Virus record (IMG/VR): IMGVR_UViG_3300028829_004004
Coordinates: 1,352-65,351 of that record
Source: a virus
Strand: one strand, 5' to 3'
DNA length: 64,000 nt
Shown: positions 1,150 through 64,000 of the stretch, piece by piece
Position numbering within the stretch: position 1 is the stretch's first letter
Layout of the letters: each line of letters opens with the position of its first letter
The notes under the pieces: generated by a model
The model's database searches: none
Seen by the model: the letters and a program-made list of their open reading frames with translations, nothing else
Told to the model about the DNA's origin: nothing
Translations under genes and position numbers: made by a program

Positions 1150-1186
1150 CACTACTGCAAACGTTTGCAAATGACAGGAGGTCCAA

Positions 1187-2050
1187 ATGAATTGGTCCGC
1201 TGAACAACTCACAAAAGTTACTACCGGAATTACCTTCAGCCTCAAGAGCCGTAAGGATACGGCCCGCGCACTGCTAATCAGTGACGCGCATTGGGACCAC
1301 CCCTACTGCGACCGCAAGTTGTATGACAAGCACATACAAGAGGCAGTAGATGAGGGAGTCCCTATCCTGTACAATGGGGATACCCTCTGCCTCATGCAAG
1401 CTACATCTGACCGCAGACAGAAGAAGGGACAGACACGTGAAGAGCATGACGATCAAGACTACTTCCGTTCTGTATGTAAAGATTTCGCTGGCTCCCACGG
1501 TACAGCCGCCAACAACATCGCCATGCTCGGGTATGGTAACCATGAGACTGCTCCACTGAAATGGTGCTCAGTCGATCCTGTGCAACTACTTGCTGACCAG
1601 ATTGAACTACGCACAGGCAAACGCCCCGTGGTTGGTGGGTATCGCGGCTGGGTATCCTTCCGTGTAAACCGCGGGAAGCGCCCCATGCACCGAGCTATCA
1701 ACATGTACTACACACATGGAGCAGGTGGTGGTGGTCCGGTGACCAAAGGGGTCATCAAAACAAACAGACACAACGCATTCATCGACGGTGCTGACATCGT
1801 ATGGATGGGCCACATACATGAAGAGTGGCAACTGAATACTCCCATGATTGCCATCAACAAGAATGGAAAAGAGTCCATGTACAAACGGTGGCATATCTGT
1901 ACACCCGGATACAAGGAAGAATTCCTCGGGAGTAACCTTGGCTTCCACCATGAAGGGGATCGCCCGCCTAAACCTACCGGTGCTAAGTGGTTGACCATCT
2001 ACCAGAAAGGTGACGAACTCCGCACGGAGATCACACCTACCCGCGACTGA
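1187..2050 (+). CDS. Calcineurin-like metallophosphoesterase
   Basis: Motifs SDAH, NGD, GNHE, THG, GHIH in canonical order; GGAGG RBS. Confidence 0.85.
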   Translation: MNWSAEQLTKVTTGITFSLKSRKDTARALLISDAHWDHPYCDRKLYDKHIQEAVDEGVPILYNGDTLCLMQATSDRRQKKGQTREEHDDQDYFRSVCKDFAGSHGTAANNIAMLGYGNHETAPLKWCSVDPVQLLADQIELRTGKRPVVGGYRGWVSFRVNRGKRPMHRAINMYYTHGAGGGGPVTKGVIKTNRHNAFIDGADIVWMGHIHEEWQLNTPMIAINKNGKESMYKRWHICTPGYKEEFLGSNLGFHHEGDRPPKPTGAKWLTIYQKGDELRTEITPTRD

Positions 2051-2061
2051 TTAACGCCTTC

Positions 2062-2128
2062 CCCCCTAGACCCCTTCTTGCATATCCGCGTATGTGGATC
2101 TTGTATAGGACTAGGGGGTTCTTTTTTT
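2062..2128 (+). terminator. Rho-independent terminator-like hairpin with large structured loop
   Basis: CCCCCTAG (2062-2069) / CTAGGGGG (2111-2118) followed by TTCTTTTTTT, directly after the phosphoesterase stop. Confidence 0.65.
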
Positions 2129-2241
2129 GAGGGGTCGCCCTTTTCTCAGGGCTTCCCCCGCGTGTGTATTACGGATAGGTTGAGAAAATTTTTCCCGCTG
2201 CGTGACGTGTAGTCCGCTGGCACTGAGAAGAATTTTTCAAA

Positions 2242-2808
2242 TTATTTTAGGAGTCTAATTACTGGATCATTCTCTACAGTAATTACTGCGGCGATAGCAT
2301 CCGCAATGTCCTCGAACTCCCCCTTGAATCCCGTCGTCTTTGACCGGGCGCTCTTATACTTGTCAGCAACTCCGGGGAACATAGCCGCGATTTCCTTCTG
2401 CATCTTGGCCTTACTTGCGTTCGCACATCCACCTACCCTCTTCTTCGAGTCCTTAGCGGGTACCTCCAAGAGAGGAAGTTCTAGTAGTGCCGTTATGCAT
2501 GTGACAATAGCCGTAGCAAACGCCATCCCTTTCACCGCGGATGAGGACTTCCCTCCACCTGAGGGCTGCTCGGACACAACTACTAGTGGCTCGTAGTCAT
2601 CTATGATAGCCTTGAGCTTATCGGTTATGTGAGCTATGCGGCGGGCGTCATCGCTGCTCTTGTAGATGCCCCGCTTCTTATTCTCAGGCTTGGTTTGAAT
2701 AGCTCCGCTTGCAACTACATCCCAACCCCCTGAGGCCGGGAGCATAATACACCACCCAGTGCAAGTAAGGGATGGGTCTAACCCTAGTACAACTAGTGGG
2801 TCACTCAT
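2242..2808 (-). CDS. ruvC: RuvC-like Holliday junction resolvase
   Basis: VLGLDPSLTCTGW, VVSEQP and DIADAIA acidic RNase H-fold motifs. Confidence 0.85.
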   Translation of the reverse strand: MSDPLVVLGLDPSLTCTGWCIMLPASGGWDVVASGAIQTKPENKKRGIYKSSDDARRIAHITDKLKAIIDDYEPLVVVSEQPSGGGKSSSAVKGMAFATAIVTCITALLELPLLEVPAKDSKKRVGGCANASKAKMQKEIAAMFPGVADKYKSARSKTTGFKGEFEDIADAIAAVITVENDPVIRLLK

Positions 2809-2822
2809 TTACGCTCTTACTC

Positions 2823-3677
2823 CTATCTTGTTCCAAAACATTCAAACGCGAACGGGCACTTACATGCACGCTTGTCCTTCAAAGACAAACACTCCCTCAT
2901 ACTAGGGGGTGGTGGGGTGCCTGCGTCAATCGCCTCCCACAATGTGTGGATCTTATCCACAGCCTTGTCCCACAACTCTGGTTCTGCCTTGTAGCTCAAG
3001 GTCATCATCTTCTTCGTGTTCATGTTTACGTAGAGGAACACAGTCTCCTCCATCCCTGTCATGTGCTGGTAGGCACACGCCTGTACACGGTTGTACTCCG
3101 GGGGTTGGCGATTACTGATGACGCTCTTGAATGACCACTCATTAGCTGACTTGATCTCTAGGTGCTTGAGATCCTCCTCTAAATCATCAGAGGCTTTCAC
3201 TTCGTCCCCCCTTGCTCCTGCCTCCAAGGCATGGAACACGCTGTTCATGCGGTTGTTACAGATCAACCCGTCAACATGCCCCGAGAGTTTTAGCTCCTTG
3301 TCATATAAGGTATACTCCTCGTAATGGAATGTACCCCCGTCGCATTCAACGCAGGCGTCGGGATAGTAACAGTCCTTGTGGGAATGGTGGCAGGTGACAC
3401 ACACCCACTCCCCTTTGAGGAAACCAAGAGGACCAATCACAACTGATTGTAAGTACTCATGGATGAATGTTCCCAACGTAAAGGTGAAGTCAAGCTCCCG
3501 TGTCATCTCTACGTACTTGGCCTCAGGGACTTGGAAGTGTTTGTCCTTGAAGTACTCCTCCCAGATACACATGTTGAATATCTGGGAGGATCTCACATAC
3601 TTGGGGGCCTCGAATACTTTCCTCTCCCCCGCAGTCTGCTTGAGAATGCGGGCAAGTCTCCCAGCCTCACACGCCAT
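2823..3677 (-). CDS. Cas4-like PD-(D/E)XK exonuclease
   Basis: GTFIHE, SGHVDG, LEIKS, Q-x3-Y motifs plus C-terminal Cys cluster (C..C-x-C-x4-C). Confidence 0.8.
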   Translation of the reverse strand: MACEAGRLARILKQTAGERKVFEAPKYVRSSQIFNMCIWEEYFKDKHFQVPEAKYVEMTRELDFTFTLGTFIHEYLQSVVIGPLGFLKGEWVCVTCHHSHKDCYYPDACVECDGGTFHYEEYTLYDKELKLSGHVDGLICNNRMNSVFHALEAGARGDEVKASDDLEEDLKHLEIKSANEWSFKSVISNRQPPEYNRVQACAYQHMTGMEETVFLYVNMNTKKMMTLSYKAEPELWDKAVDKIHTLWEAIDAGTPPPPSMRECLSLKDKRACKCPFAFECFGTR

Positions 3678-4056: not shown

Positions 4057-4060
4057 AAAT

Positions 4061-4390: not shown

Positions 4391-4393
4391 GGT

Positions 4394-5062
4394 TTACTCC
4401 CTCCCTAAAAACTTGAGTACCTGTTGTGACGCTGCCCACCCGGCTGACTCCTTGAAGGTAAGCTCAGGGAACTTCTGCTTGAACACACTAAGGGGATCAT
4501 GCATGAAGACATCGAAGGATACCTCGCTCCATCGACCGTACTGCAAACGTTTGCACCACTTCGCCAAGGTCCCCCTATACTTCTCAACTAACTTGGTAGC
4601 TCGGTCGTTGGTAAGGAGATCCCGCACTAGGAAGCTATCCAGAATTCGGTTAAGCCTTCTACGTACATGGACGATGTGACACTTGATCCCCCGAGCTTCT
4701 AACTCTCTCACGTATACAGGTAGAGTTAGGGACAACCGAGGGTCTTTGATACAGATAGCGGGACTGTCGTAACGATCAAGGATATCCTTCACCTGCTGGT
4801 CATACTTTGTCTCCGTCATTAGGTGGCTGAAGTCTGTCTCTAACTCAGATAGAACCCAAGTCCCCGCCTCACCAAGGATAGTGTCATTGAGTCGCACTAC
4901 CCTCTCATCCTCGAAGAACCCTTTGGGGTTGCCGCGGTCTGCGGGGATAAGGTCCAGCATCTGAACCGGCTCCCCTTTGTAGTGAGCACGGTAGAAAGTA
5001 CCAGCCAGTGCCGAGGTACCAGACCGACCCACACCTACCAAAAGATAGCATACCTCTGTCAT
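4394..5062 (-). CDS. Sulfotransferase-family protein
   Basis: N-terminal GVGRSGTSAL PAPS-binding loop, NPKGFFED and IKDPRL motifs. Confidence 0.75.
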   Translation of the reverse strand: MTEVCYLLVGVGRSGTSALAGTFYRAHYKGEPVQMLDLIPADRGNPKGFFEDERVVRLNDTILGEAGTWVLSELETDFSHLMTETKYDQQVKDILDRYDSPAICIKDPRLSLTLPVYVRELEARGIKCHIVHVRRRLNRILDSFLVRDLLTNDRATKLVEKYRGTLAKWCKRLQYGRWSEVSFDVFMHDPLSVFKQKFPELTFKESAGWAASQQVLKFLGRE

Positions 5063-6736: not shown

Positions 6737-8078
6737 GTGTGAAATCTAACTTGGTATACACCTTCTCGCGTGCGCCGAAAAGGCCGTTGGCATAGGGGAT
6801 TGCGCGGTCTACCACATCGACAACCATTGGAGGCTTCTTCTCCTTGGTAGGTCGCTGGATACGGCCTACCATCTGAGCGACCCTACTACGAGGTGTAGCA
6901 AGAACCAAAGTATCAAGGGAAGGAATATCGGTACCCTCTCCAAACATCCCATAAGTTGCCAGAACAACTCTGCACTCATCAGCCGTCGCACTCTCCATGT
7001 CGTCAGTAGAACGATATTTGACTATCTTACTTCCTGACGAGGATAAGAGACCCTCAAGGCTGTCTAGTTGTTTTACTCTGTCGGTGAGCACAAGTGTTTT
7101 CCTACCGGCCTTGATTGCTCTCATGCAAACGTTTGCAATCATCTTGTTCCGGTCTTCGTCTTCTGCTATCATGGTTATCAACTTGGAGGTGTTCAGCCCA
7201 CCTCCGCGGATCTTGGGGGGCGTCTTCTTTGCCTCCCACTCCATGACATAGTAACTACCTTTAACGACTTGCCCGCGCATTGTAACAAGCTGCGGACCAA
7301 TACTCCAATCGAGTAAGCACTTCAACCCATCCCGGCGATCCGGGGTAGCTGTGAGACCCAGCTTATAGCGGGCTGAGAAACTGTTAGCTACCTTGGAAAA
7401 GGTCTGGCTAGGGACACGATGTGATTCGTCGGACACAAGGAAACCAAAGTGGTCGAAGAACCCCGAGGCTCGGAAACTTTCGAGACGAGAGTACAAGGTC
7501 TGGAAGGTTGCGATCACAATGTGAGCATCCTTGACGCATGGCTCATTAGCCCGCACCTTGACTACCCGCGCCTCAGGCATGAACCTGTTGATCTCCCTCT
7601 CCCACTGGTCCATGAGGTCGCACTTGTGGACGAGGACAATAGTCGGGGTCTTCATACGTGCGATAAGGTGCAGGGCAGTGATAGTCTTACCCGCGCCGCA
7701 GGTTGCTTTGATCCAACCTCCGGTCTGCCCTTCACGGTACGCTTTGATTACCGCCTCGTCAGCTACCTGCTGGCCCGGTCGCAATAGCCCCTCAAACTTT
7801 GGGGGTCTAGTCCATGGTCCTTTCAGGTGGCTATATTGGGTACAATCAAACACTTCAAACCGGGTGAATGTTTTGAAGAAGTACTCACGTGGCATACCAA
7901 ACCACACATCGCCACCTAGTGTGTTCCTCTCATAATGAGTAGAGACCTCCGGTGGTACCCCTTTTGCGTAGGGGTTCTCGACTACCAATGTAAGGTCTTC
8001 CTTCAACCGCTCAATACCTGTAGAGCCAAGGTCAACAGCGCGCGCCCACGCTAATCTATCTAAGGTTACTCGTATCAC
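6720..8078 (-). CDS. SF2 DEAD/DEAH-box helicase (UvsW/XPB-like)
   Basis: TCGAGKT, DESH, TAT, GEGTD and QMVGRIQR motifs. Confidence 0.9.
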   Translation of the reverse strand: MIRVTLDRLAWARAVDLGSTGIERLKEDLTLVVENPYAKGVPPEVSTHYERNTLGGDVWFGMPREYFFKTFTRFEVFDCTQYSHLKGPWTRPPKFEGLLRPGQQVADEAVIKAYREGQTGGWIKATCGAGKTITALHLIARMKTPTIVLVHKCDLMDQWEREINRFMPEARVVKVRANEPCVKDAHIVIATFQTLYSRLESFRASGFFDHFGFLVSDESHRVPSQTFSKVANSFSARYKLGLTATPDRRDGLKCLLDWSIGPQLVTMRGQVVKGSYYVMEWEAKKTPPKIRGGGLNTSKLITMIAEDEDRNKMIANVCMRAIKAGRKTLVLTDRVKQLDSLEGLLSSSGSKIVKYRSTDDMESATADECRVVLATYGMFGEGTDIPSLDTLVLATPRSRVAQMVGRIQRPTKEKKPPMVVDVVDRAIPYANGLFGAREKVYTKLDFTRERKK

Positions 8079-11256: not shown

Positions 11257-11312
11257 CTCTACTCCCGTTACCTCTACTACCATTTCATTTACCCTTTGCA
11301 AACGTTTGCATT

Positions 11313-13099: not shown

Positions 13100-14082
13100 A
13101 ATGATATTGTCTCTCTAAACTCGTGTAATTGTAACTCGTTGGGGTCTTTGTTTGGGGGTAGTTTCTCGGTCAAATCTTCACAGCATGGTACTCTCCTTTC
13201 AAGTAGTTTGTGGGCTTGGTTGGCGCCTTTATTGCCAGCCGTGTCGTTGTCGAACATAACCCATGTTAGTAATTGTTCAAGTTCGATTTGGTCAATTTGT
13301 TCTCGGCTTATTGAACAGCCGCTGATAGCCACTGGCATTACTATCCCCGCCAACCCTAGCTTTGTTAGATGCTGCCAACAGCGCATGGCGTCAAATGGAC
13401 CTTCAACCAGTATGTATGTTTTCGTTTCTCCCTCATAGTAAACGGGGGAGACAAAGCCTAACTCTGTCCTCGTTCCCCAGTAATGTTTCCACTTGTTGTC
13501 ATCCTCACCGAGGGTTCTCCCACTTGCTCCTACAAACTTACCGGCAAGGGTATACACCGGGAACACTACCCGGTTATCCCTCTCATCCCACCGGCACCCA
13601 AAGTCGCGCCAAGTACGGGAGTCGAACCCTCGCTGAATGAGGTAATGCCCACCGGGATTGCAAACGGTTGCATTGGGGAGGTTGGTGTCAAACCAATTCC
13701 AGAGAGGGTCCATGTCATACACCTCCCTCACGTACTGTGGAGTACCTAGCCCACCTACAACGCGGCTTATTAAGGTGGATGGTCTACTCTCCTCAGCCAT
13801 CAATGCCTGCCCCATCTCCCTAAGCTGGTCGCTCCCGCTGTAGATGGAGAGGGTGGTGAACAGTTGCCAGAACTTCCCCTTCTGCCCGCAACCGAAGCAG
13901 CGAAACGTGGAGGCACCATCATCATGGACTGACACAGTGAAGGAGGGATTAGCGTCTGACCCCTCATGTGTCCACTGTGCGAATGGGCAAGAGAACTTCA
14001 AGTGATTGTTATTCTTCTGGATCGACAACTTGTCGGTTAGTCCTGCTGCCAACACATAATCTGTTACTTGATTCAGGTCCAT
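13096..14082 (-). CDS. DNA primase (Zn finger + TOPRIM)
   Basis: CPF...H...CFGCG Zn finger, LVEGPFDA and FDNDTAG TOPRIM motifs. Confidence 0.9.
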   Translation of the reverse strand: MDLNQVTDYVLAAGLTDKLSIQKNNNHLKFSCPFAQWTHEGSDANPSFTVSVHDDGASTFRCFGCGQKGKFWQLFTTLSIYSGSDQLREMGQALMAEESRPSTLISRVVGGLGTPQYVREVYDMDPLWNWFDTNLPNATVCNPGGHYLIQRGFDSRTWRDFGCRWDERDNRVVFPVYTLAGKFVGASGRTLGEDDNKWKHYWGTRTELGFVSPVYYEGETKTYILVEGPFDAMRCWQHLTKLGLAGIVMPVAISGCSISREQIDQIELEQLLTWVMFDNDTAGNKGANQAHKLLERRVPCCEDLTEKLPPNKDPNELQLHEFRETISL

Positions 14083-15916: not shown

Positions 15917-16616
15917 TGAATCCTGCCTCCGGTGAATCGTCTTCTTTGAATCGCTTTAGCAGTGTCCGCTCATCAATAAAACCTGTGACCATAGTGTCAC
16001 GGATTCGCCCAAAGAAGGACCCGGTGGCTAGTAAGTTGAGGGAAGGGGTTCCCTTCACCTTGAACTTCTCTTTGATCTCATCCCAGTTTTCCATGTAGAA
16101 GTGGACTGTCTTAACGTACCCGTCGAAGTCATCTGCCAACCAAGTTAGCAAACGTTTGCAATAGACACTTCCCATCTTGCTGCTGAGGGGGTAGGTTTTC
16201 TCGAACTTCTCCTCGTAGGCTTCCTTGAATACGTTGAAGGCTTTGCCTGAGGAGTGGCGTTTCTTCTTACCGAAAGCAGGGGCCGCTTTCTCAGTCAGTA
16301 TCGAGTTCAACCCTGCGTTCCTGCTCTTAGTGAGTTTCTCTTTTACTGACTCTGCTATCTTCGTTGCCGGGATAATGTGGTACTCCATCTCGGTTGCTTC
16401 ATACTGAATAGGTCGGTTGTCTTCCGACAAAAGGCGTCGCCTCTTTAAGTCGGATATAGAAGCGGATACCCGACTAGGTAGCATCCCTAGTTGGGTGCTC
16501 ATCTCCTTTACTGAGGGCGTCTCCTCAAAGCAACACAGAAGAGCATATACTGCAATTGAGTTAGGGTTAGCTGTTGCGAACGCACCGGCCTGCAACGCCT
16601 GTAGGAAGTGTTCCAT
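15909..16616 (-). CDS. Putative replication initiator (N-terminal winged HTH)
   Basis: HTH-like PSVKEMSTQLGMLPSRVSASISDLKRRRLL; lies directly upstream of the DnaC-like gene as in lambdoid/SPP1-type modules. Confidence 0.6.
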   Translation of the reverse strand: MEHFLQALQAGAFATANPNSIAVYALLCCFEETPSVKEMSTQLGMLPSRVSASISDLKRRRLLSEDNRPIQYEATEMEYHIIPATKIAESVKEKLTKSRNAGLNSILTEKAAPAFGKKKRHSSGKAFNVFKEAYEEKFEKTYPLSSKMGSVYCKRLLTWLADDFDGYVKTVHFYMENWDEIKEKFKVKGTPSLNLLATGSFFGRIRDTMVTGFIDERTLLKRFKEDDSPEAGFSE

Positions 16617-18143: not shown

Positions 18144-19415
18144 TTAAAGATCCTTGAAGGGTTGTACTTTATTATCGTAGACCACGGAACTATAACCGGA
18201 TAAGAAGGGGGCATTAAGGATTGTCTCTAGGTTACTAGGGATCAACGTAATGAACTCATGGTAGAACCGGCGGGAGAAACGGGCTAACTCACACCCCCTA
18301 CATCTCCGGCCCTTCCTCTTCTGGGCTTCCGCGTCAGCGATTCTCTTCTTAGTCTTGTCTGCAAACGTTTGCAAATCGGGGAACAACTCAAGTATCTTGT
18401 CGCAGTCCTTCCAACATTGGGTAACCGTGTATGGCTTACCCCTACGTTTAGGGGGAGGTTGCTTCACAGGGGTCTCCTTCTCCTGTAGCGGGGAGGCGGG
18501 CACACCTGCAAGCATAGTACTAACCTTATCTACAGGGAGTTTTCTCTTGGGGGTGTACAGCCCGGATAGCTGCCGATCCTCCTTCAGTCCTTCTAATTTA
18601 CTAGCCATACGTTTCCTTACAGCATACATGCCTTCAGTAATTTCCTTCTCCGGGTCACCTACCGGTTGCAAGGCGTACTCAATTGCCTCTTCAAAAGGGA
18701 TGTGATCAAACGCCCGTAAGCCGCTATTCGCATAAGTGTTGTAGATGGTTACCCCTTCTGCCTCAAAGAATCTGCGGACTTCACTGAACATCAAGTTCAG
18801 CCCTGCGTAGGAGTTGTTGTTGGACCGGCACCCACCTGTATGTTTCTCCTCCTTGAACGAGTATGGTTGGTCGGGGTCCATGTGAAAATCGCACCCAACT
18901 ATAAAAATTTTGGAGAACCCTAACTCATAAAGGAGGCGCATAGCTACCAGCATGACACTCCGTACGCCCGTTGCTTTCTTGTAGGTCTGGCCCTTCCCAA
19001 GTCCCCAGCATACCCGGTTAGAGGTGAGAAACTTCTCGGGGTCAAACCCCGTTTCCCTCGCGTACTGGTAGACGTTAGGAGCTTCCGTCAACTTTTTGGT
19101 ATGGGGGACATCTAGCTCGGTGTCCCATAACTGCTTGGTGCAGAACCCTTGGGGGACAAACTTCATAATAGTCGGGTCAAAGTACACTGACTTTAGGAAT
19201 CGGTCTGGAGGGTCAACACATGTCCACAAGTTGGGACGCACCGCTTTTGCTCCGTTGTTCACACACATCCTCGTTATGCCGGGTTTGTACAACAGCGACT
19301 TGTCAATCGCTGCCATAGCCTTTGGCCCATTAACGCAGAGGAAAGCAGATGCCCCCTTCATCATACCCTTCAGGGGTACTGGTTCATCTTGGCAGTTTAG
19401 TATCATGGCGCTCAT
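18144..19415 (-). CDS. Maf/DUF115-like putative glycosyltransferase
   Basis: GP-x..CVNN, CVDP, SVMLVAMRLLYELGFSKIFIVGCDF, IYNTY motifs of the Maf/MptE-like Rossmann fold. Confidence 0.6.
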   Translation of the reverse strand: MSAMILNCQDEPVPLKGMMKGASAFLCVNGPKAMAAIDKSLLYKPGITRMCVNNGAKAVRPNLWTCVDPPDRFLKSVYFDPTIMKFVPQGFCTKQLWDTELDVPHTKKLTEAPNVYQYARETGFDPEKFLTSNRVCWGLGKGQTYKKATGVRSVMLVAMRLLYELGFSKIFIVGCDFHMDPDQPYSFKEEKHTGGCRSNNNSYAGLNLMFSEVRRFFEAEGVTIYNTYANSGLRAFDHIPFEEAIEYALQPVGDPEKEITEGMYAVRKRMASKLEGLKEDRQLSGLYTPKRKLPVDKVSTMLAGVPASPLQEKETPVKQPPPKRRGKPYTVTQCWKDCDKILELFPDLQTFADKTKKRIADAEAQKRKGRRCRGCELARFSRRFYHEFITLIPSNLETILNAPFLSGYSSVVYDNKVQPFKDL

Positions 19416-22387: not shown

Positions 22388-22827
22388 TTCCCTAGTGGGC
22401 AGGACTCAACCGCGAGTCCCGCTTTCGCTACCATTATACAACCACAGTCCCCGCACACTCCCTCGTCAGGATCAAATAATGCGCATGAGTTGCAGATATC
22501 TAACCGAGTGTTGTGGACTTCTTTTGTTACCTTTATATGCTTGTCTCGGACTAACCCCCTTATCACCCTCTTCCCTGCCCCGGCTAAGTTCTTAATCCTC
22601 TGAGGGAGAGGTGGTGGGGTTATGGGGGTGGTGGTGAGCCAGTGGTTATTTTCAACACTCACCTCTTCGGGTACCCCCGCGGCACACTCGTACGCACAGG
22701 GAGCGTCTCGCCACTCAACCCCGTTGGATTCCGCTTGCGTGATAAGGTGACGGCGAAAAGTGCAGTCCCGTAAACAAGCGTGACAAAAAGACTCCGGGAC
22801 TGCCTTCTGCAAACGTTTGCATTTCAT
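22372..22827 (-). CDS. Cys-rich hypothetical protein (DUF6171-like)
   Basis: RLDICNSC...CGDCGC...K...CPLGKW C-terminus; family name from recall. Confidence 0.6.
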   Translation of the reverse strand: MKCKRLQKAVPESFCHACLRDCTFRRHLITQAESNGVEWRDAPCAYECAAGVPEEVSVENNHWLTTTPITPPPLPQRIKNLAGAGKRVIRGLVRDKHIKVTKEVHNTRLDICNSCALFDPDEGVCGDCGCIMVAKAGLAVESCPLGKWKAI

Positions 22828-27395: not shown

Positions 27396-30300
27396 TATAC
27401 AATTGCTCCAAGGCTGGCGTTAAAGAACATGTTCTCCAACTTGCGAGTCAACTCGTCCTCGTCTATGGATGTGTTAATCGTGACTTCTAAAGTACGGTTG
27501 TCAGTGATCTCGGTTGCTCCCCCCGTCAGGGAAGAGGTGGCGTCATCAGAAGTCTTAGGTACACCAGAAGAGGGTAGGCCCTGAGCCATGTCGTCAAGGA
27601 AGGCGGGCCGTAGCTCAAAGTCAGGACCGAGGGTACGCCCCTTCATGTACTCCTGCCAGATCGCGTCTATCTCCTCTTTAGGGATAATATTACCCCCGGT
27701 CTTGTCCAAGATAAATGACTTAGCCCGGTCAATTGCCTCCCCCATCCGCTCCATGGCACCTTCCGGTATCTTATGAGCATCTGGGTTGGATAGTAGTGGA
27801 GCTAGAGGTGCGTACTTCGGTTCTTTGTGTGGGACGGGACGTAGTTCACGCTGTTTCTCGCTATCTGGTTTACCCATCCGAGCTTTGATGGTCCCATACT
27901 CTCTTTGGCCAAGGGGGTGGGCAATCATCCCTCCCTCAGAGAAGATTGCAGCCCTTTCTCTTCGCGTAGCTTCTTTCTTCTCAGCCGCCTTACGACGCAA
28001 CTCAGCTATCTTAGCAGCACGAGGGTCAAGGGTCCCGCGTGTCCGGGCTATCGCTGCCTCCATCACTGCTGCCCCGTGCTTGGCTCGGGCGGATGCGTTC
28101 CCTATCTTCTGCTTGATGTTTGCCCCTAGCTTACCGGGTCTACCCGTTCGGAAGCGGTTGCCTAACTTCAGACCATTCGATGCAAACTTTTGCACCTTCT
28201 CCGCTGTGTTGTTAGCAACCTCTCCTACCTTCTCCGCTACCCCTCCTACCTTCTCCGCTGCCCTCTTCGCTGCCTTCTTTGCGTTCTCCACAACTGTGAT
28301 CGAGGGGTCGTCCGCAAGGAGGTCTAACCCTGAATCCTCAAACTCAGGCCCTTCACCTATCCAAGGGGGTACACTTACCTGCCATGGGTCTGGTCGTAGT
28401 CCGTCGATGATCGGAGTGCTTTCTGAGGCTTCCCCCTCTGCTGCCGCTGCTGGGGCCGGTTCGCCCGCTGCTGCTGGGGCCGGTTCGCCCGCTGCTGCTG
28501 CTGCTGCTGCTGCTGCCGCCTGCCCCCCCTCCTTCTCACCTTTCTCCGCTCCCCCCGCTAACTTCGCTAACTTCTCCGAACTGTCCGAGAGCATCTGTTG
28601 CACCCGAAGGAGGAGACCTAAAAATCCGGACTGCTCTTTGACTGCCTTAGGCTGCGCCTTAGTCTGCTCCTTATCCTCGTTGATGAGCAACTGAAGGTAG
28701 CTTTCAAGTATCCTCTTCTCCCCGGAAGCAGTAGCATTCTTGATCTCCTCCCGGACTGACGCAATCTCTTTGGCGTTACTATCAAGGAGAGACCCTATGG
28801 CCCCCTCTGTGTGGATATCGTGGGTGTACGCGCTACCACGAGTGTTGAGCGCCTTTGCCGCATCCGACACCTCGTCAGCGTCGGGGAGATCATCTGATCC
28901 TACTGCGGGAACCTGCGCGCCTAGCCCCGGTAGTTGGGCTGGGCCTGCTTGTTGTGCTCCAAAGAAGTTGTCTGCCGCTCTAGCCACCTCCAAGATGTCA
29001 CGGATAAACGCCGCCCTAGCTCCCTCATCGAAGATTGAGTAGCCCTTAATTGCGTTAACCACCCCCTCAATGAACTTCACCCCCATTGACTTGGCAAAGT
29101 CCCCGAGCGTACCATGTATGCTATCCATAGCGTCGGCAATAGCTTGGGTGACTTGGTTGGAGAACTCCTGAAGAGGATCATCCGCCTCGAGGATGGTGAC
29201 GAAAGCCGCCACACCATTATGAAAGCTGTCAATAACCCCCTTTAGAGTGGGGATCATCTTCTTCACTGAGGCAGTGAAGGAATCGAAGATGATCGCCCCT
29301 GACTCCGCAAGGTTCGCCATGAATGGGAATAGCATCTTAGCAAAGAATGCGCCTAGTACCCTAAAGGCGTTGTACACTCTCTCTACCCATGACGAGCCTA
29401 ACTCGTCGCTGATCCCAAGAGCTTTACGCAACTCAGCACTTCCGTCCACTGCGGCTTTCCACGCTGTATTCATTGCAGCAAGGAAGCGGTTTAGGGAGTC
29501 ACGAACTACACCAAAGTTCTCTGTGATCCCTTTAGTCAACCCGAGGAGGACCGTGGGGATAAGGGTCTTCAAGACAATGACTGCCTTCACCACGAACTTA
29601 GTGAGAGTCCCGAGTTCTCGCATAATAAACTTGATCGACTTACCTAAAGTGCGTAAGAGGGTTTTGGACTTGCCCTTCCCTTCCTTAAAGATAGATGAGA
29701 ATACAGAAGATACCGCTTCCCCAAATCCCTTGAACTCCACTATAGCTACGTCGAGCAAGCTAGAGATGAAGGAGATTAGAGGGGGGACAACACGGTGAAC
29801 CAGTGAGCGGGATTGCGCAAATAGCACTACCATAACTCCATGGACTGCCGAGAGGTTATCTGCAATTGAAGCCAAAGCGGCACTGAACCCACTTGTCTTT
29901 ACGTTGTTCATCATAGTAAAGGCAGCGACAAGTTCGTCAATAACCAACGCAACTAAGCGGTCACTCTCCTTGACGAAGCTCATAATGATATCCTTCAAAG
30001 CAACGAAGGAGCGGGTCACCGATTCGATGACATCCATCTTGTTTAGAGCCGCTTTAACTTGATCAAACTTCCGTACCAAATTAGAGATGGTAGAGGCAAG
30101 TAGCATTACCCCGAAGACAAGCGCAGCTACCACAGGGAGGGTGGTAGCGGTGAGAGCTAAACCGATAGACTCGATAACTCCTGCGAAGGCTAAGACCACA
30201 CCAGACAGGACCATGACCGATATACCAAATGCCAGCAGCCCTACTGAGAGAGTACCAAAAATCAACCCAAGGACCTGTGCCGCTTGCTTACTAGATTTTA

Positions 30301-33306: not shown

Positions 33307-33354
33307 CTTAACCTCCGGGGGTTTTTAAGTTTGCAAACGTTTGCAAGATTCAGG

Positions 33355-35408: not shown

Positions 35409-35428
35409 GGTTTGCAAACGTTTGCATT

Positions 35429-39527: not shown

Positions 39528-39558
39528 GGGGAGTTCCTCAGTTGCAAACGTTTGCAAG

Positions 39559-42112: not shown

Positions 42113-42157
42113 ATCTCAACTCCTATAAAATGCAAACGTTTGCAAACCGTGATATAC

Positions 42158-46623: not shown

Positions 46624-46998
46624 TTAAGCGAAGTCGCGACGGACTATTCCCTGCTGCTTCCAGTGGACACGGCAGGGTTTATCCTCGATGAATGTGCGGA
46701 TGACCTCAAACGTCTGAGAGTCTACGACAAAATGAGAGTAGAAAGCGTCGAAGTCTTCGTGGGGTTCAACGTCTATGGCGGGTGTGCCCATCTCACTGTC
46801 TCGGTAGAAGACTACCCCAAGTTCTTGCAAACGTTTGCTTTCTTGGTTAACTTCGAGTTGAGTGTCCGACCAATCCGCGTCCTCTACGAAGTAGGGAATG
46901 CGGTGGAGTTCCAGCGGCATACAAGGAAGGAGACTGTACACCTGTATGGTGAAGTGGCGATCTTCGTATAGGTCGTCCATTATGCTACCACCTCGCAC
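46624..46998 (-). CDS. Hypothetical protein
   Basis: Operon packing. Confidence 0.5.
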   Translation of the reverse strand: MRGGSIMDDLYEDRHFTIQVYSLLPCMPLELHRIPYFVEDADWSDTQLEVNQESKRLQELGVVFYRDSEMGTPAIDVEPHEDFDAFYSHFVVDSQTFEVIRTFIEDKPCRVHWKQQGIVRRDFA

Positions 46999-49937: not shown

Positions 49938-50434
49938 TTATGGTTATCTGGTTCACCGGGCTTTCCGGTTCAGGGAAGACAACACTCGCAAAAGAAATCC
50001 TCAAAGTTTTACCCCGCGGATTCCTTGTGGACGGGGACATGCTCAGAGAAGGGTTGTGTGCTGACCTCGACTTCGACCCACCCTCTCGGCATGAACAGGC
50101 ACGGCGGGCCGCAGGAGTTGCCAAGATAGCTCATGCAAACGTTTGCACGGTAGCCTGCTCTGTGATTACCCCACTGGAGAAAAGCCGGGAGGTAGCACGT
50201 GAGATGCTCAAAGACTGTGACTTCAAAATGGTCTATGTCAGCACTCCACTAAAGGTCTGTCAGCAGAGGGACCCCAAAGGACTTTACGCAAAAGTTGCTG
50301 CCGGAGAGATCACTAAGTTTACTGGAATCAGTAGCCCTTTCTGGCCCCCCGCACAATACGACTCTGTTGTGGACACAACTGATAGAACAATCACTGACTG
50401 CCTTGATCAGATTCTTTCTGATATCGGCTTGTAA
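49934..50434 (+). CDS. cysC: Adenylyl-sulfate (APS) kinase
   Basis: IWFTGLSGSGKTT, DGDMLREGL, RDPKGLYAK...FTGISSP. Confidence 0.95.
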   Translation: MIMVIWFTGLSGSGKTTLAKEILKVLPRGFLVDGDMLREGLCADLDFDPPSRHEQARRAAGVAKIAHANVCTVACSVITPLEKSREVAREMLKDCDFKMVYVSTPLKVCQQRDPKGLYAKVAAGEITKFTGISSPFWPPAQYDSVVDTTDRTITDCLDQILSDIGL

Positions 50435-53673: not shown

Positions 53674-53928
53674 ATGATCACTGGTGCTCTACCTATCCCT
53701 CCCTCTGCGTGCCCTTGTAAGGACTATGCAAGAACCGACATACTAGAGGGAGGACACTCCTCTAGGTGCCCAAATAAAGACCGGGTGGCAGTAGACCTTG
53801 GGTGGTTAAAGCTACGGATCAACCACCTAATGAGGCGCGGGCTTTCAGTCAGTGCCGCCTTTGAGAAGGTGGAAGAGGAACTCTCACGCGAGAAGAAGTA
53901 TGAGTCAAGAGAACTCAACCCATTCTAG
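53674..53928 (+). CDS. Hypothetical protein
   Basis: Operon packing. Confidence 0.45.
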   Translation: MITGALPIPPSACPCKDYARTDILEGGHSSRCPNKDRVAVDLGWLKLRINHLMRRGLSVSAAFEKVEEELSREKKYESRELNPF

Positions 53929-53952
53929 CAAACGTTTGCATGGAGAAAACCG

Positions 53953-56587: not shown

Positions 56588-56811
56588 AGGTGATTACTGA
56601 CGAGAAGCCTACCACCTCCGTTCAACTACGGGTGTTCGCTATTTGCGGCCTTGGTTTAGATGGGAGGTTTGTCCATCAAAGCGATCTCCTCTGGTTAGAG
56701 GGAATAGTCAGGAAGTACCCCAAATGGACAGTCGATGAATTGCAACCGTTTGCATCTGGGGAGGGAGGAGTCTGCAAGATGGAACCAACAATCAAGGAAC
56801 AATACAAATGA
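56560..56811 (+). CDS. Hypothetical protein
   Basis: Operon packing. Confidence 0.4.
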   Translation: MGDKGMGEVEVITDEKPTTSVQLRVFAICGLGLDGRFVHQSDLLWLEGIVRKYPKWTVDELQPFASGEGGVCKMEPTIKEQYK

Positions 56812-58382: not shown

Positions 58383-58387
58383 ACAAT

Positions 58388-58582
58388 ATGAAAACAACAA
58401 CCCCCGTAACTAAACTAGCCAAATGGTTCGCCGCGCATATCCGGCCTGACTTCATCCTATCCCCCATTGCCACTAGTAATATTAAGTACCGCTACCCCGG
58501 AGACCTCTACGTAGGGAAGACAAACGTCTTCATCTTCGGAGTAAGAGTAGCCCAATTCCAACGCACCGCACCTTGGGACTAA
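58388..58582 (+). CDS. Hypothetical protein
   Basis: GGAG RBS before ATG 58388. Confidence 0.45.
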   Translation: MKTTTPVTKLAKWFAAHIRPDFILSPIATSNIKYRYPGDLYVGKTNVFIFGVRVAQFQRTAPWD

Positions 58583-59079
58583 CATGGAAGTAACACTAAA
58601 TGCAAACGTTTGCATGAGCCTATCCTGCGCTAGAGCGGGGTTGCAGCCGACGCGCCATGATTGTAAGGGATCTCTCGAGTACGGGAGCCACAAGCCCCAT
58701 CTCTAATGCGCAAGAAAGTGTTAATAAATTAGCTTTTAATGGCTTTATTGCTCATTAACCGCCATTATAATAGCGATATGGAGGATTCGCATAGGGTGCC
58801 TGTGTGATGAGTGTATGAAGTGTGAGTGGAAAGACGATGTCCGCACAGAATGGCAGGATACTTGGGAAGAAGCATTAGAACAGTGGGAAGAGATGATGGC
58901 AGAATGCAAACGTTTGCAACCAGAGAAACTAGGATGAAAACTGATAGAATAGAACTCACTGAGTACAAAGACTTCCGCATAGGCAGCATCATCCAATCCT
59001 ACTTCAAAGGATACCCGCGCCCGCATATACCACATCTCCCCAGCAGGTGAACCTAACAGATAAACACTAGAGAACACAG

Positions 59080-59716: not shown

Positions 59717-59723
59717 TACGAAT

Positions 59724-60345: not shown

Positions 60346-60346
60346 G

Positions 60347-61288: not shown

Positions 61289-61528
61289 ATGACTGACTAC
61301 GAAAAGGCAAAAGCTGCGGGACTGACGCAAGTTGACCGATGGGGTGAGGGCAAAGAACATCACCCTATGTCAGAGAGAATCGCCAACTTCCTTGTGGATC
61401 ACGATTATCACGACTATGGGGATTATTTTTGCTGGAAGTTGGGAGGCGATGGGGACAATGGCGAGACGCTCGCCTTCCAGATGGATGCTTTTTTTGAACT
61501 TCTGGATAACGCCAAGGATCTCCCATGA
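61289..61528 (+). CDS. Conserved phage hypothetical protein
   Basis: FCWKLGGDGDNGETL; ATGA overlap. Confidence 0.55.
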   Translation: MTDYEKAKAAGLTQVDRWGEGKEHHPMSERIANFLVDHDYHDYGDYFCWKLGGDGDNGETLAFQMDAFFELLDNAKDLP

Positions 61529-62265
61529 CTGAACGAGGAACGAGAGAAGGCATTGGCGAGCATCCGCTTGTTCTGCTTGACCTGTTTTGCTGCGAAGGTG
61601 GAGCGGGCGAGGGCTATCGACGGGCGGGGTTCGACGTGGTGGGCGTGGACATCGAAGATAAAAGTGGGCGCAACCCGCACCGCTTTATTCAAGGTGAAGC
61701 GTTGGAATATCTCGCCGCACACGGTCACGAATACGACATCATTCACGCTAGCCCGCCTTGCCAAAGTTACAGCAAGAACCTGAAACACATGGCCGCACCG
61801 AAACCGATGCTGATCGAGCCGACAATAGAACTCCTAAAAAGCACGGGGAAACCGTGGATCATGGAGAACGTCGATGGCGCACCGCTAGCGACCAGAAGTG
61901 AAAACGGCAGGCATGGCGTCGTCCTCTGCGGAACGATGTTCGGAAAGCGTGTTTACCGACATCGGATCTTTGAAACCTCGTTCCCGATTGTAGCGCCTCG
62001 CCCGTGCGACCACTCACGGAAGGCAATGAACCCTTTCAAGCACGAAGGATGGTATCGAATCCGTGAGGAGTTCGGGACGGAACACACGCCCGAGAAAGTG
62101 TGGCGGCTAGAAATGGGCTTGCCTTGGATGAGCAAGCAGGGAGCAAGGGAAGCCGTGCCGCCCGTGTTCACGGAATACGTGGGGCGTGAATTTTTGAAGC
62201 AGAACGCCGAGATCAGCGGCTTGTCCGCTGCATCGGCTGGTTATCAATCGCAGGGAGAAGACTGA
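61525..62265 (+). CDS. Orphan C5-cytosine DNA methyltransferase-like protein
   Basis: LDLFCCEGG (motif I), ASPPCQ (IV), IMENV (VI), RHRIF (VIII). Confidence 0.8.
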   Translation: MTERGTREGIGEHPLVLLDLFCCEGGAGEGYRRAGFDVVGVDIEDKSGRNPHRFIQGEALEYLAAHGHEYDIIHASPPCQSYSKNLKHMAAPKPMLIEPTIELLKSTGKPWIMENVDGAPLATRSENGRHGVVLCGTMFGKRVYRHRIFETSFPIVAPRPCDHSRKAMNPFKHEGWYRIREEFGTEHTPEKVWRLEMGLPWMSKQGAREAVPPVFTEYVGREFLKQNAEISGLSAASAGYQSQGED

Positions 62266-62480
62266 TGGGAACCGGACAGAGAAAGGCGCGGGAGGATGAG
62301 GAAGACTATATCGACTTATGTGAGAGGTTTGGTGAGGTAGTACAAACCAAAACCACTGTCGTAGGTGGAGGATGGGGACGGCGGGTCACTTTTGTAGACT
62401 GTTATGGTTCGCATGCATCTGAGTTGAGCCGTAGAGCTAACGCGGCCATCTCAGACAGAAATCTGCGTGGCGACACGTAG
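62265..62480 (+). CDS. Hypothetical protein
   Basis: Start overlaps methyltransferase stop. Confidence 0.45.
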   Translation: MGTGQRKAREDEEDYIDLCERFGEVVQTKTTVVGGGWGRRVTFVDCYGSHASELSRRANAAISDRNLRGDT

Positions 62481-62496
62481 CTGGAATACAACAAAA

Positions 62497-62577
62497 GACA
62501 CGGTAGCTCAGGGCATTTAGTGGTAGAGCACCCGAGACTAATCGGAGAGGTCGTAGGTTCGAGTCCTACCCGTGTCT
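62497..62577 (+). tRNA. tRNA-like element with aberrant anticodon arm (identity undetermined)
   Basis: 7-bp acceptor stem GACACGG/CCGTGTC, D stem GCTC/GAGC with enlarged loop, T arm GTAGG-TTCGAGT-CCTAC; anticodon stem CCGA/TCGG with 6-nt loop GACTAA; ends T-CCT rather than CCA. Confidence 0.65.
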
Positions 62578-62725
62578 CCTTTGTATTTCCGCCAAGAGCC
62601 TAAGCAACCATGATGACACCCTTTAAGCATTTGCAAACGTTTGCATAGCACCCCCCAGATGACAACCCTCCCCCCACATAAACTACAAATGCAAACGTTT
62701 GCATAGAACAGACTGATACGGTAGG

Positions 62726-62789
62726 AATAAAAAAAACAAACAAAAATAAAAAAAAACAAACAAACAAAAATAAAAAAAAACAAACAAAT
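62726..62789. repeat. A-tract tandem repeat T-A8/9-(CAAA)2-3 x3
   Basis: Read directly from the sequence. Confidence 0.9.
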
Positions 62790-63157
62790 CTTAACTCCTC
62801 CCCTCTCCGCCGAGGTAGAAAAATGGGCCGGAGGGGAGGGGACCTCAAGCCGACATTCACATATCTGCATAAGCGAATACCATCTGGATATACGGATAAG
62901 CGAATGTGAAAAAAGGTGGGGAGGGAAAGCAACTGGAACCGCTCCAGTTCACTTCCGTACTGGCCCTCTTTTTCACCACATATACGGACATGCAAATGTT
63001 TGCATACGTTCTCCCGGCGCTTCTATTGTCTCCCCTAGCCTAGCCTTTTGCAACTAACCACCGCGCTTTTGTATCCTTCCGCCATATGTTTTTGCGACTA
63101 TGCAAATGATTGCACGGAAGACAACGCGAGTGGACACTACGGAAGACAATAGAAACA

Positions 63158-63211
63158 CGCGGTAAGAAAAACGGCTGTACAGACATAGACACAAGCGCGG
63201 TAAGAAAAACG
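63158..63211. repeat. Direct repeat CGCGGTAAGAAAAACG x2 (period 38)
   Basis: Copies at 63158-63173 and 63196-63211. Confidence 0.85.
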
Positions 63212-64000
63212 AGCCAACCGAAAGATACAAAAACAATTGAGAAAAGTCCGGGAAAAGTAGAACACGTGAGCGGAACGTACCAAAGGTGAGAAAAGAGCCT
63301 GTATAGACACATACAAAAGCAGCGGAAAAGCGCCTGTACAGATAGATATAGAAACACCGCCGGAAGTTGACCGCTTTTGTAGTTATGTGGTGGTTCCATT
63401 TTCCGAATTATAGTGGCATCTCCCATCCTGAAATCAGAAAATGGTGTGAATAGAATCACACACAAGAGCATATCACCTACTTTCCGAATATGGCACTACA
63501 GATACGAGCTAAAGCATTCCATTTATATAGGTCTATATAAAGTCTTCGTTTTTGTTGCAAAAAAGTATCGCCGCCAGTAGGGGAACGAACTAAAACGCGG
63601 TTTTCTCGCTTGGAGAAGGTAAGAAAAGGCGCGGGAATGAATGCAAACGTTTGCCTTTTCTGCAAAGGGGTGGAACTAAAGCGAGTCTTGACGATTTGAA
63701 GGCTGCCCCGCTTCACGTATAGAAAGAACGCCGGCAACGGTAGCGCTCTTTCACATTTCGATTCCCCTTCATGCAGCAAGGCAAGCCCCAGAGCTTGTTG
63801 GCTTCCACGCCATTTAGACCTTGTGGGCGGGCATGAATCGGTGGCCGGCCAAGCCACTAGCGGTAACCTTGCCACGATGGCAAGGCCCGCGCAACTCCCT
63901 AATTGGAGCGAATCAACATGCAAACTGCATATGATTCTAACAACGCGCTACTTCGTAGCGTTCCTACCTGCGGCGACTTCGTTCGCTTCTGCGAATCCGA

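Follow-up and report, generated by a model that had tools for sequence, protein, structure and literature searches.

What keeps a 14-bp palindrome at two dozen places along one viral genome, and what kind of protein would read it? The window discussed here is the whole stretch of 64,000 nucleotides that was analysed, and the phage that carries it is uncultured and marine. The initial annotation had reported 15 perfect and 8 one-mismatch copies, had compared them with bacterial LacI/PurR operators and with dispersed sites of the stoperator, Noc and parS kinds, and had proposed silencing, chromosome organisation or titration of a host regulator. Here, we weigh these possibilities against the distribution of the sites, their fate among relatives and the proteins encoded by the clade.

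Number, spacing and placement of the sites

A recount recovered the 15 perfect and 8 one-mismatch copies, the perfect ones at exactly the same coordinates, and added one copy with two mismatches, giving 24 sites (Table 1). Dinucleotide shuffles of the window predict 0.00 perfect copies and 0.13 with up to two mismatches, and the excess over shuffled sequence therefore stands. A sixteenth perfect copy lies 362 nt to the left of the window on the same IMG/VR contig (65,525 bp). The motif is sharply defined: nine contigs that share the window's variant have ~100 perfect, ~34 one-mismatch and just 8 two-mismatch sites, where 1.4 would be expected. A weak, symmetric extension brings it to 18 bp (t-T-core-A-a), and the outer T/A pair is fixed as firmly as the core, being present in 126 of the 133 copies of the 12-bp core that ten motif-bearing contigs contain. 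The flanks are symmetric, and no other conserved element occurs within 50 nt on either side.

The sites are also more even than random placement would make them (mean gap 2.78 kb, CV 0.55, widest gap 5.4 kb; P=0.0012), and this holds against a null that retains the split between intergenic and coding positions (P=0.0004; largest gap, P=0.003). The copy in the tape-measure gene illustrates the pattern, as the gap there would be 10.5 kb without it.

Table 1. Copies of the 14-bp palindrome and the right-end region, in window coordinates; (+) and (-) give the strand of the gene
Position	Match	Location
1156..1169	perfect	intergenic, 17 nt upstream of ATG 1187, just before AGGAGG ribosome site
4542..4555	perfect	within CDS 4394-5062 (-)
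7124..7137	perfect	within SF2 (UvsW-like) helicase gene 6720-8078 (-)
11297..11310	perfect	tiny intergenic gap, 2 nt past stop, 8 nt before next ATG (genes on - strand)
13659..13672	one mismatch	within DnaG-type primase gene 13096-14082 (-)
16147..16160	one mismatch (outer base)	within gene 15909-16616 (-), putative initiator
18360..18373	perfect	within CDS 18144-19415 (-)
22808..22821	perfect	codons 3-7 of gene 22372-22827 (-), 20 nt past stop of upstream gene
28181..28194	one mismatch	middle of tape-measure gene 27395-31762 (-), 4.4 kb
33332..33345	perfect	intergenic, 25 nt upstream of ATG (- strand); position shared with G009
35413..35426	perfect	between two - strand genes, 4 nt before ATG; junction shared with G009
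39543..39556	perfect	15 nt before next ATG; position shared with G009 and G011
42131..42144	perfect	junction of portal gene and next head gene, 18 nt before ATG 42112; shared with G009
46826..46839	one mismatch	within gene 46624-46998 (-)
50134..50147	perfect	within gene 49934-50434 (+), putative CysC-like APS kinase, offset 200 nt
53927..53940	one mismatch	overlaps stop codon, 12 nt before ATG 53953 (sulfotransferase gene)
56741..56754	one mismatch	within ORF 56560-56811 (+)
58601..58614	perfect	intergenic, 19 nt past stop of ORF 58274-58582
58905..58918	perfect	15 nt before ATG at 58934, within or at end of small ORF
62632..62645	perfect	apparently non-coding right-end region; first of pair 58 bp apart
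62690..62703	perfect	second of right-end pair; A-rich repeat tract next
62991..63004	one mismatch (central C to T)	apparently non-coding right-end region
63101..63114	two mismatches	apparently non-coding right-end region
63642..63655	one mismatch (outer base)	apparently non-coding right-end region
62481..64000		right-end region, ~1.5 kb: A-rich repeats and 5 of the 24 sites; sole local cluster

Non-ORF DNA makes up 4.8% of the genome and holds 7 of the 24 sites (~6-fold enrichment, P=1e-4). The claim that about half of the copies lie near gene starts agrees with distances of 4-25 nt before the ATG at seven of the sites named for it, the eighth (22808) occupying early codons. Half of the copies are intragenic and, as the initial annotation had also noted, they use different frames, in fact all three, and encode CKRL(Q/L), (L/V)QT(F/L)A or ANVC. 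Short intergenic spacers take sites where such spacers are available, and otherwise sites are written into tolerant codons. The putative initiator gene that carries one copy is upstream of a DnaC-like loader and DnaB. No convincing gene was recognised in 62481..64000 (ORF translations junk-like, no Pfam match), and this region is a candidate origin, centromere or control region.

Selection, turnover and lineage variants

In the nearest relative, contig G009, all six syntenic sites are at identical places, two of them intragenic, and the motif is identical at 82 of 84 positions, against 504 of 720 (70%) in the flanks (P ~1e-10). G009 has a perfect copy at the position orthologous to 46826..46839 despite diverged flanks, carries the site at the same offset in its orthologue of gene 49934-50434 (with one outer mismatch) and ends in a similar site pair, 54 bp apart. 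More distant orthologues behave differently. In comparison with G001, G002, G003 and G005, the intragenic sites prove to be substitutions at residues that align but are weakly conserved (the copy at 7124..7137 encodes ANVC at an alignable but poorly conserved position), and the orthologous positions in these four contigs lack the window's intragenic sites. Because intragenic sites turn over at this distance, it is the number and spacing of sites that are selected, not particular places. What selection maintains is a density of ~1 site every 2-3.5 kb, no gap going far beyond 5 kb, and place-for-place retention in the close relative together with turnover in distant orthologues supports the earlier proposal that selection acts genome-wide on the DNA and not on the peptides.

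Across the clade the element is an inverted repeat, TGCAA-N4-TTGCA, of which the window's palindrome is one lineage-specific dialect. Arrays of the repeat occur in many of 364 capsid relatives in IMG/VR. These belong to a large clade of ~100-kb phages in which each lineage has its own variant: the arms are fixed and the centres are lineage-specific (TTAA, TCAA/TTGA, CAGG or a free dinucleotide in sister phages, the last in Rhizobium phage RHph_I4). Two cultured members, Stenotrophomonas phage DLP5 and RHph_I4, carry 31 and 50 evenly spaced copies, respectively. Spacing is even in G000, G001, G003, G010, DLP5 and RHph_I4 (CV 0.25-0.56 vs ~1.0; P down to <0.0002), and the evenness survives the null that keeps the intergenic/coding split. 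Persistence as a phagemid has been reported for DLP5, and stable lysogeny for DLP3 (PMC7326821); the wider clade therefore includes phages with a silenced or partitioned state.

RHph_I4 bears directly on the relation of the palindrome to transcription. Of its 21 TTGMCAAAGGAT promoters, 12 are preceded by a palindrome whose end lies 8-12 nt before the -35 box, and the remaining 38 palindromes lie elsewhere. The palindrome as a promoter in itself was rejected, as its flanks are not conserved and RHph_I4 has its own, separate -35 and -10 boxes. More broadly, each copy could be an ordinary local element, i.e., a promoter, operator or 5'-UTR RNA hairpin of the adjacent gene, as suggested by the intergenic enrichment, by the frequent position shortly ahead of an ATG and, in some cases, immediately behind a terminator (the one preceding the site at 39543 is the strongest hairpin of its region, has a 14-bp stem and lies behind the major capsid gene) and by the phasing to early promoters in RHph_I4. 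We nevertheless consider this improbable, since half of the copies are intragenic and in every frame, positions are lost among distant relatives and spacing is even. Moreover, no conserved -35/-10 or asymmetric element accompanies the sites, no sigma-70-like promoters were found at the window sites, and the only homologue of G000's ECF-like sigma factor is in G009. Genomes packed this tightly have almost no free DNA apart from the spacer ahead of a ribosome site, and any tolerated insert would be expected there.

The palindrome might instead be read as single-stranded DNA. On the template of the lagging strand, or on DNA undergoing resection or recombination, it would form a hairpin with a stem of 5-7 bp and a 4-nt loop, and a protein of replication or recombination (a primase, helicase loader or SSB-dependent factor) would recognise it, which would give either strand start or loading points at even intervals. 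Constant arms around a loop that differs by lineage, and in RHph_I4 an arm gap that varies over 3-5 nt, fit this reading, as does a palindrome usable by both strands. Okazaki fragments have lengths of the same order as the 2-3 kb spacing. Seven larger array-bearing members (G000, G001, G002, G003, G005, DLP5 and RHph_I4) have in common, besides capsid and portal, a recombination and replication set of DnaB, DnaG primase, a gp32-like SSB, a RecA/UvsX-like protein, a UvsW-like helicase, PolA and a Cas4-type exonuclease. However, the hairpin is predicted to have low stability (-2.8 kcal/mol at 14 nt, -4.8 at 18 nt; z ~ -1.5), most of the clade keeps the arm TGCAA unchanged, with no covariation, and compensatory change is present in only one of eight double-mismatch sites. 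Known DnaG primases recognise trinucleotides, and the fixed promoter phasing in RHph_I4 suggests duplex DNA. A hairpin signal appears unlikely, if still credible. The shared proteins would also be compatible with a replication-linked role for the array.

The protein that may read the array

The likeness to LacI/PurR operators seen initially is real. The extended site occurs at at least 120 bacterial loci where ~9 are expected, mostly intergenic and adjoining LacI-family regulators and sugar-use genes in many phyla; 14 of 95 genes flanking these copies belong to one family of ~340 aa, and three members that were scanned have LacI HTH and ligand-binding domains. The variant in G054, with C/G outer bases, corresponds to the PurR box. 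The phage could accordingly use host LacI/PurR-family sites, either titrating the repressor (e.g., derepressing purine or sugar pathways) or gating its expression on a host metabolite. The central CpG that defines the operator is, however, missing from sister arrays (TTAA, TCAA/TTGA and the free dinucleotide of RHph_I4), the outer T/A pair is all but invariant, and five bacterial genomes in which the site occurs (Alteromonas, Vibrio, Grimontia, a Synechococcus MAG and an Erythrobacter MAG) have just 1-3 copies each. Titration, furthermore, needs neither even spacing nor the filling of long genes. The absence of a LacI-family gene from the window was borne out by a search for PF00356, which was empty for the whole contig, and no LacI gene was found in 10 phage contigs, one of them complete. 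Since these contigs encode no LacI HTH and the central CG is absent from sister dialects, a host LacI/PurR regulator as reader or titrated target is very improbable, nor does the phage itself supply a LacI-family reader.

No reader gene was found in the 65.5 kb of the contig, for which CheckV completeness is ~64%. Of the candidate readers that the initial annotation had named, the RHH protein has a homologue in G009 only, among the contigs compared, and the initiator-like protein has homologues only in G001 and G005, with a weak match in G022. The helix-turn-helix of terS does not track dialect. A more specific candidate is a protein of ~250 aa with a ParB_N domain encoded upstream of terS in G001, G002, G008, G010, G021, G022, G030, G035, G038, G054 and DLP5, with weaker matches in G003. 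Its structure model (pLDDT 73.5) is closest to KorB (8qa9, E 1.6e-8), followed by CTP-bound ParB and Noc. As a CTP clamp, it would load at each palindrome and slide for a few kb, so that even sites would allow coating, silencing or partition of the whole genome; known ParB-family sites are palindromes of 13-16 bp, and the widest gap of ~5 kb would be compatible with a short sliding range. The distribution of the gene argues otherwise. A PF02195 search of G000 gave no match, and in the window's sub-lineage (G000, G009 and G012) the slot is taken by an unrelated Zn-ribbon protein, yet all three keep the array. G020 (84% complete) has an even array and no ParB homologue, whereas G038 (79% complete) has the homologue and no array. 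Nor does the identity of the protein follow the dialect: the G001 version has just 24-29% identity to its counterparts in G002, G054 and G010, contigs with the motif of G001, but reaches 45-47% against counterparts from phages that carry another motif or none. We regard this clamp as quite unlikely, and the reader is probably neither the ParB/KorB-like protein of the clade nor the small terminase.

The clamp is a specific version of the explanation that we favour, to which we give an even chance: the array may be a set of high-affinity double-stranded docking sites for a two-fold symmetric, sequence-specific and likely phage-encoded protein that acts chromosome-wide. Such a protein would dock on duplex palindromes along the chromosome, with the whole chromosome and not single genes as its target, and its effect would spread along the DNA or reach over a distance. 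Its role could be global silencing or roadblocking, coating or compaction, or partition of a plasmid prophage, comparable to what KorB achieves through the OB sites of RK2 and the L5 repressor through stoperators. The excess and sharpness of the sites, their symmetric flanks, even spacing, purifying selection, turnover, dialects and non-promoter nature are all consistent with docking. Against it, the variable arm gap of RHph_I4 suits a hairpin better than a rigid dimer, and the proteins common to the seven larger members are mainly those of recombination and replication. The genes annotated in this analysis include no markers of a temperate lifestyle.

Comparison with known systems

The 14 bp are identical, letter for letter, to the operator found beside LacI-family genes in many bacterial phyla. 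The phage array differs from these operators in density (one per 2.8 kb), in the loss of the central CG in sister dialects and in being carried by phages without a LacI gene. The Cluster O mycobacteriophages (the Corndog group), which are siphophages, have ~30 copies of a 17-bp dyad repeat with fixed arms and a free centre in small intergenic gaps. The window's array resembles this short palindrome with fixed arms and a variable centre, but sequence and host phylum differ. To our knowledge, the Cluster O repeats are intergenic only and even spacing has not been reported for them.

The earlier comparison with stoperators and with dispersed palindromes of the KorB, Noc and parS type is apt. Stoperators of L5 and other Cluster A phages are 13-14 bp long, number 20 to 35 copies mostly at gene junctions, vary by lineage and are read by one phage protein (the gp71 repressor in L5), by which the genome is silenced. 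Many copies of a short site across a phage genome and lineage-specific variants are common to both, whereas stoperators are asymmetric and oriented with transcription and the window sites are palindromic, half intragenic and evenly spaced. No repressor or temperate marker was identified among the annotated genes. Plasmid RK2 has 12 OB operators for KorB, a CTP-dependent global repressor of the ParB family, in a mix of promoter-adjacent and remote positions. The phage arrays have 2-5 times more sites, which are significantly even, the ParB-family gene is absent from the contig of the window's sub-lineage, and the clade's ParB-like gene tracks neither arrays nor dialects. In both cases, however, a palindrome of 13-16 bp is dispersed around a replicon of 60-100 kb, some copies are just upstream of promoters and others remote or intragenic, one protein acts, or in the phages would act, genome-wide, and a KorB-like fold is encoded by many members of the phage clade.

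The palindrome array and the selection on it

In the window the 14-bp palindrome, which is the local form of a TGCAA-N4-TTGCA motif, is present in 15 perfect, 8 one-mismatch and 1 two-mismatch copies, so that the 15 perfect and 8 one-mismatch copies reported in the initial annotation are reproduced by the recount. In dinucleotide shuffles of the window perfect copies number 0.00 and copies with at most two mismatches 0.13. One more perfect copy lies to the left of the window on the same contig. The logo of 129 sites from five contigs adds two weaker symmetric positions (t-T-core-A-a), while no other conserved element is found within 50 nt on either side of these sites; ten motif-bearing contigs together have the 12-bp core 133 times, and 126 of these copies are bordered by the T...A outer pair. 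The quasi-regular spacing that had been claimed also holds. The coefficient of variation (CV) of the gaps is 0.55 in the phage contig studied here (G000) and 0.54, 0.40 and 0.25 in the relatives G001, G003 and G010, where random placement would give about 1.0, and the CV summed over 11 contigs is lower than in all 20,000 simulations. Even spacing persists under a null that preserves the intergenic/coding split of each genome, and the largest gaps are below expectation, at 4.9-7.1 kb across the five genomes put to this test and 5.4 kb for G000 itself.

Non-ORF DNA, the 4.8% outside the longest ORFs, holds 7 of the 24 site centres (P=1e-4), and several further sites fall in the first codons of over-called ORFs. 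Eight sites counted by eye are situated 4-25 nt upstream of a start codon or over the first codons, in keeping with the earlier remark that many sites are near gene starts, and the strongest terminator hairpin of the region is directly followed by one palindrome. The remaining sites, with about half of all sites in genes, are intragenic in all three frames, where they are due to substitution, not insertion, at residues that can be aligned and are weakly conserved. Set beside this placement and the even spacing, the reading of the sites as local regulatory elements is very doubtful.

The earlier proposal that selection acts on the DNA itself was to be judged by conservation in close relatives. 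In the nearest relative, a 27-kb contig (G009) whose proteins are 39-90% identical to those of G000, each of the six syntenic sites is kept at the same position, including the site at offset 200 nt of the gene initially annotated as CysC and the site inside a 124-aa gene; the motif is identical at 82 of 84 positions, whereas the 60-nt flanks are 70% identical. Distant relatives (25-45% identity) keep the density of sites at different positions. The array is real, under selection and clade-wide.

The contig (65,525 bp, viral according to IMG/VR, CheckV completeness 64%), of which the window covers bases 1352-65351, originates from a marine metagenome and is a siphophage by gene content, with two arms of genes (see table). 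Megablast of 20 kb of the contig retrieved no close relatives among GenBank phages, searches with terminase, PolA and capsid gave only relatives with at most 30% amino-acid identity and no close cultured relative, an IMG/VR single-protein search with the helicase gave no match, and exact-protein look-ups found no longer assemblies beyond either contig end. The last 1.5 kb of G000 contains no convincing gene and gave no tRNA or Rfam match, but has 5 of the 24 sites and A-rich repeats, and this stretch of about 1.5 kb is a candidate origin or centromere-like region. A methylase-like gene is found close by, and its product might methylate the central CG of the palindrome.

Features of the phage contig and their positions in the window
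Feature	Window coordinates	Description
Leftward arm		RecA-like protein, SF2 helicase, PolA, epimerase, DnaG primase, DnaB, DnaC-like loader
Leftward arm, further		Cas4-type exonuclease, RuvC-like resolvase, second predicted resolvase
Leftward arm, structural		Tail, head, portal and terminase genes
Rightward arm		Sulfotransferases, ECF-like sigma factor, ThyX, C5-methylase-like gene
Zn-ribbon protein	45991-46605	CxxC...CxxC, 204 aa; occupies the position of the ParB-like gene upstream of terS
ECF-like sigma factor	50712-51239	Sigma70_r2 and r4
Small C5 cytosine DNA methylase-like protein	61525-62265	PF00145, barely over the cut-off
tRNA-like sequence	62497-62576	Good 7-bp acceptor stem and canonical T arm (GTAGG-TTCGAGT-CCTAC); oversized D loop, clean anticodon stem absent; no ARAGORN call or Rfam match; could be a decayed tRNA or attachment-site remnant
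A-rich tandem-like repeats	62700-62800	Type A8-CAAACAAA, immediately right of paired palindromes

Lineage dialects of the array

At least 10 further IMG/VR contigs, with GC contents of 39-57%, have the identical 14-mer scattered along them, the highest number being 44 perfect copies in 102 kb. A capsid-profile search yielded 364 IMG/VR relatives, many of which show this architecture around a different centre (ACGT, TCGA, TTAA, GCGC, ACGA, TCAA and others), the centre being uniform in some genomes and mixed in others. In the complete genome G054 the core is bordered by C/G outer bases in 21 copies, G030 has 63 copies of TCCAA-N4-TTGGA, and the 105-kb relative G020 has 16-18 evenly spaced GTGAAC-CCG-GTTCAC near-palindromes (CV about 0.39). 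Two cultured phages have their own dialects: RHph_I4 of Rhizobium contains 50 copies per 100 kb of TGCAAC and GTTGCA separated by 1-3 free bases (CV 0.56), and DLP5 of Stenotrophomonas contains 31 copies with a CA/TG centre (CV 0.48). A phagemid state is reported for DLP5, and stable lysogeny for the related phage DLP3 (PMC7326821). Neither the papers on DLP5/DLP3 and RHph_I4 nor a text search yielded any account of the array. A few copies each are also present in a 57.8-kb provirus (G004) and in an 88-kb contig from an Anaerolineales MAG bin (CAZCTC010000030.1), as 20-21 bp palindromes of the form ATC-core-GAT; in G004 GC-rich terminator-like hairpins precede three of the four copies, and one copy lies about 20 nt before an ATG. 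These resemble operon-head operators of the classical kind more than an array.

Candidate readers and alternative readings

The resemblance to LacI/PurR operators that had been pointed out is borne out. The phage site matches the operator pattern, a 14-16 bp palindrome with a central CpG (TG.AA.CG.TT.CA), and the 20-bp extended site has at least 120 bacterial hits spread over many phyla, mostly intergenic, where about 9 are expected. Among the adjacent bacterial genes, 14 of 95 belong to one family of about 340 aa, of which three members were scanned and contain LacI HTH and sugar-binding domains, and the extended site stands beside LacI-family genes; among the further neighbours scanned are a TonB-dependent receptor, a solute-binding protein and glycosidases of families GH88 and GH97. 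A perfect operator match in a phage does not, however, prove by itself that a host regulator has been captured. The five site-bearing bacterial genomes that were checked have 1-3 copies of the palindrome each and no chromosomal array, and the LacI HTH (PF00356) gives no match above the cut-off in 10 motif-bearing phage contigs, including the complete G004 and the contig studied here, for which the absence of a LacI-family gene had already been stated. The central CpG is not kept in related arrays, which have TTAA, TCAA/TTGA or GTGA centres or, in RHph_I4, a free dinucleotide. Because of the low bacterial copy number, the lack of a phage LacI HTH and the sister dialects without a central CpG, a LacI-type reader is unlikely for the clade, and capture of a host LacI/PurR regulator by the array, one of the options raised in the initial annotation, is most improbable. 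For the ACGT dialect, cross-binding by a host repressor may nevertheless occur.

Loading of a ParB/KorB clamp on the palindromes was considered since a short palindrome in many dispersed copies is a feature of ParB/KorB/Noc-type arrays, and since most members, among them DLP5 (DLP05_107), encode upstream of terS a ParB_N protein of about 250 aa whose predicted model matches KorB, CTP-bound ParB and Noc. Against it, G000 (about 64% complete) has no PF02195 candidate and its slot is filled by a Zn-ribbon protein, which is conserved in G009 and in the further relative G012, and in these three contigs the array is kept under selection. Reader and site do not co-vary across relatives: the array occurs without the ParB gene in the G000 sub-lineage and in G020, where it is even, and G038 has the ParB gene without an array, while the ParB-like protein of G001 has its closest counterparts in phages that carry a different motif or lack one. 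The ParB-like protein has a KorB-like fold, but with poor co-occurrence and no tracking of dialects it was rejected as reader, and ParB/KorB clamp loading specifically is decidedly improbable. The HTH of terS was also discarded: G000 and G001 have the motif in common but differ in the recognition helix, and G001 and G021, with unlike motifs, have nearly the same helix. Neither ParB nor the terS HTH follows the dialect, and the gene of the reader may be in the missing third of the genome.

Common to G000, its relatives G001, G002, G003 and G005, DLP5 and RHph_I4 are the capsid, the portal and a recombination/replication set consisting of a gp32-like SSB, a RecA/UvsX-like protein, a small unannotated protein, a UvsW-like helicase, DnaB, DnaG, PolA and a Cas4 exonuclease; six of the seven, G002 being the exception, also have a small Holliday-junction resolvase in common. 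The 223-aa protein of this set has a Cys-rich Zn-finger-like motif and an acidic tail and looks like a gp32-type SSB, not like a sequence-specific binder. The small conserved protein between helicase and RecA, which by its position may be a recombination mediator, likewise does not look like a sequence-specific binder, and the ECF-like sigma factor has its sole homologue among the contigs compared in G009; all three were rejected as readers.

A bipartite promoter was dismissed on the conserved core without conserved flanks and the absence of sigma-70-like promoters at the sites, and a phage-specific promoter (T7-like, T4 late or N4 hairpin) on the symmetric logo, the intragenic half of the sites and the restriction of the sigma factor to G000 and G009. 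In RHph_I4 distinct -35/-10 boxes stand next to the palindrome, and an early-type promoter, TTGMCAAAGGAT...TAGATT, recurs 21 times; promoter and palindrome are therefore separate elements. The palindrome ends 8-12 nt upstream of 12 of the 21 TTGMCAAAGGAT -35 boxes, and the other 38 palindromes are elsewhere; the fixed phasing argues that a protein on duplex DNA communicates with transcription at some sites. A second recurrent box of RHph_I4, CCTACACGTGT, occupies further intergenic gaps and might be a promoter of the middle or late type. The possibility that the site acts in single strands, as a hairpin signal for replication or recombination, is rather unlikely, the fold being weak (-2.8 to -4.8 kcal/mol); compensatory changes number 1 among only 8 double-mismatch sites. 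An asymmetric, oriented site of the stoperator type was excluded by the perfect palindrome and the lack of a strong orientation bias of asymmetric centres (18 vs 8 in DLP5 and 9 vs 7 in RHph_I4). No repressor or integrase was found among the genes scanned in the contig, and the distant relative DLP5 is temperate.

A possible genome-wide role

The best explanation, to which we give about an even chance, is that the array constitutes evenly spaced docking sites for a symmetric, probably phage-encoded DNA-binding protein, which would bind each palindrome and have a genome-wide role. A further reading is tentative and unlikely: the palindromes may encode information for the whole chromosome, for a reader from a phage protein family that is neither ParB, LacI nor the terS HTH and is not yet recognised as DNA-binding, and may be needed for a genome-wide process in a clade of siphophages of about 100 kb with T4-like recombination-dependent replication. 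This process might be, for instance, the licensing of helicase or recombinase loading at even intervals or the coating of the DNA against host nucleases, and the lineage dialects would mark co-evolving specificities of the reader.

The retention of sites even at a coding cost points to a genome-wide DNA transaction hitherto unrecognised in common siphophages of this size, in a clade that comprises the 364 capsid relatives in IMG/VR, including the phages of Stenotrophomonas and Rhizobium. The cultured members, DLP5/DLP3 and RHph_I4, make the question directly testable. Dispersed operator arrays are known from few replicons, such as the KorB operators of RK2, the stoperators of Cluster A phages and the C1 operators of P1; in the present case a single inverted repeat, in lineage dialects, is retained at statistically even spacing across a very large clade.
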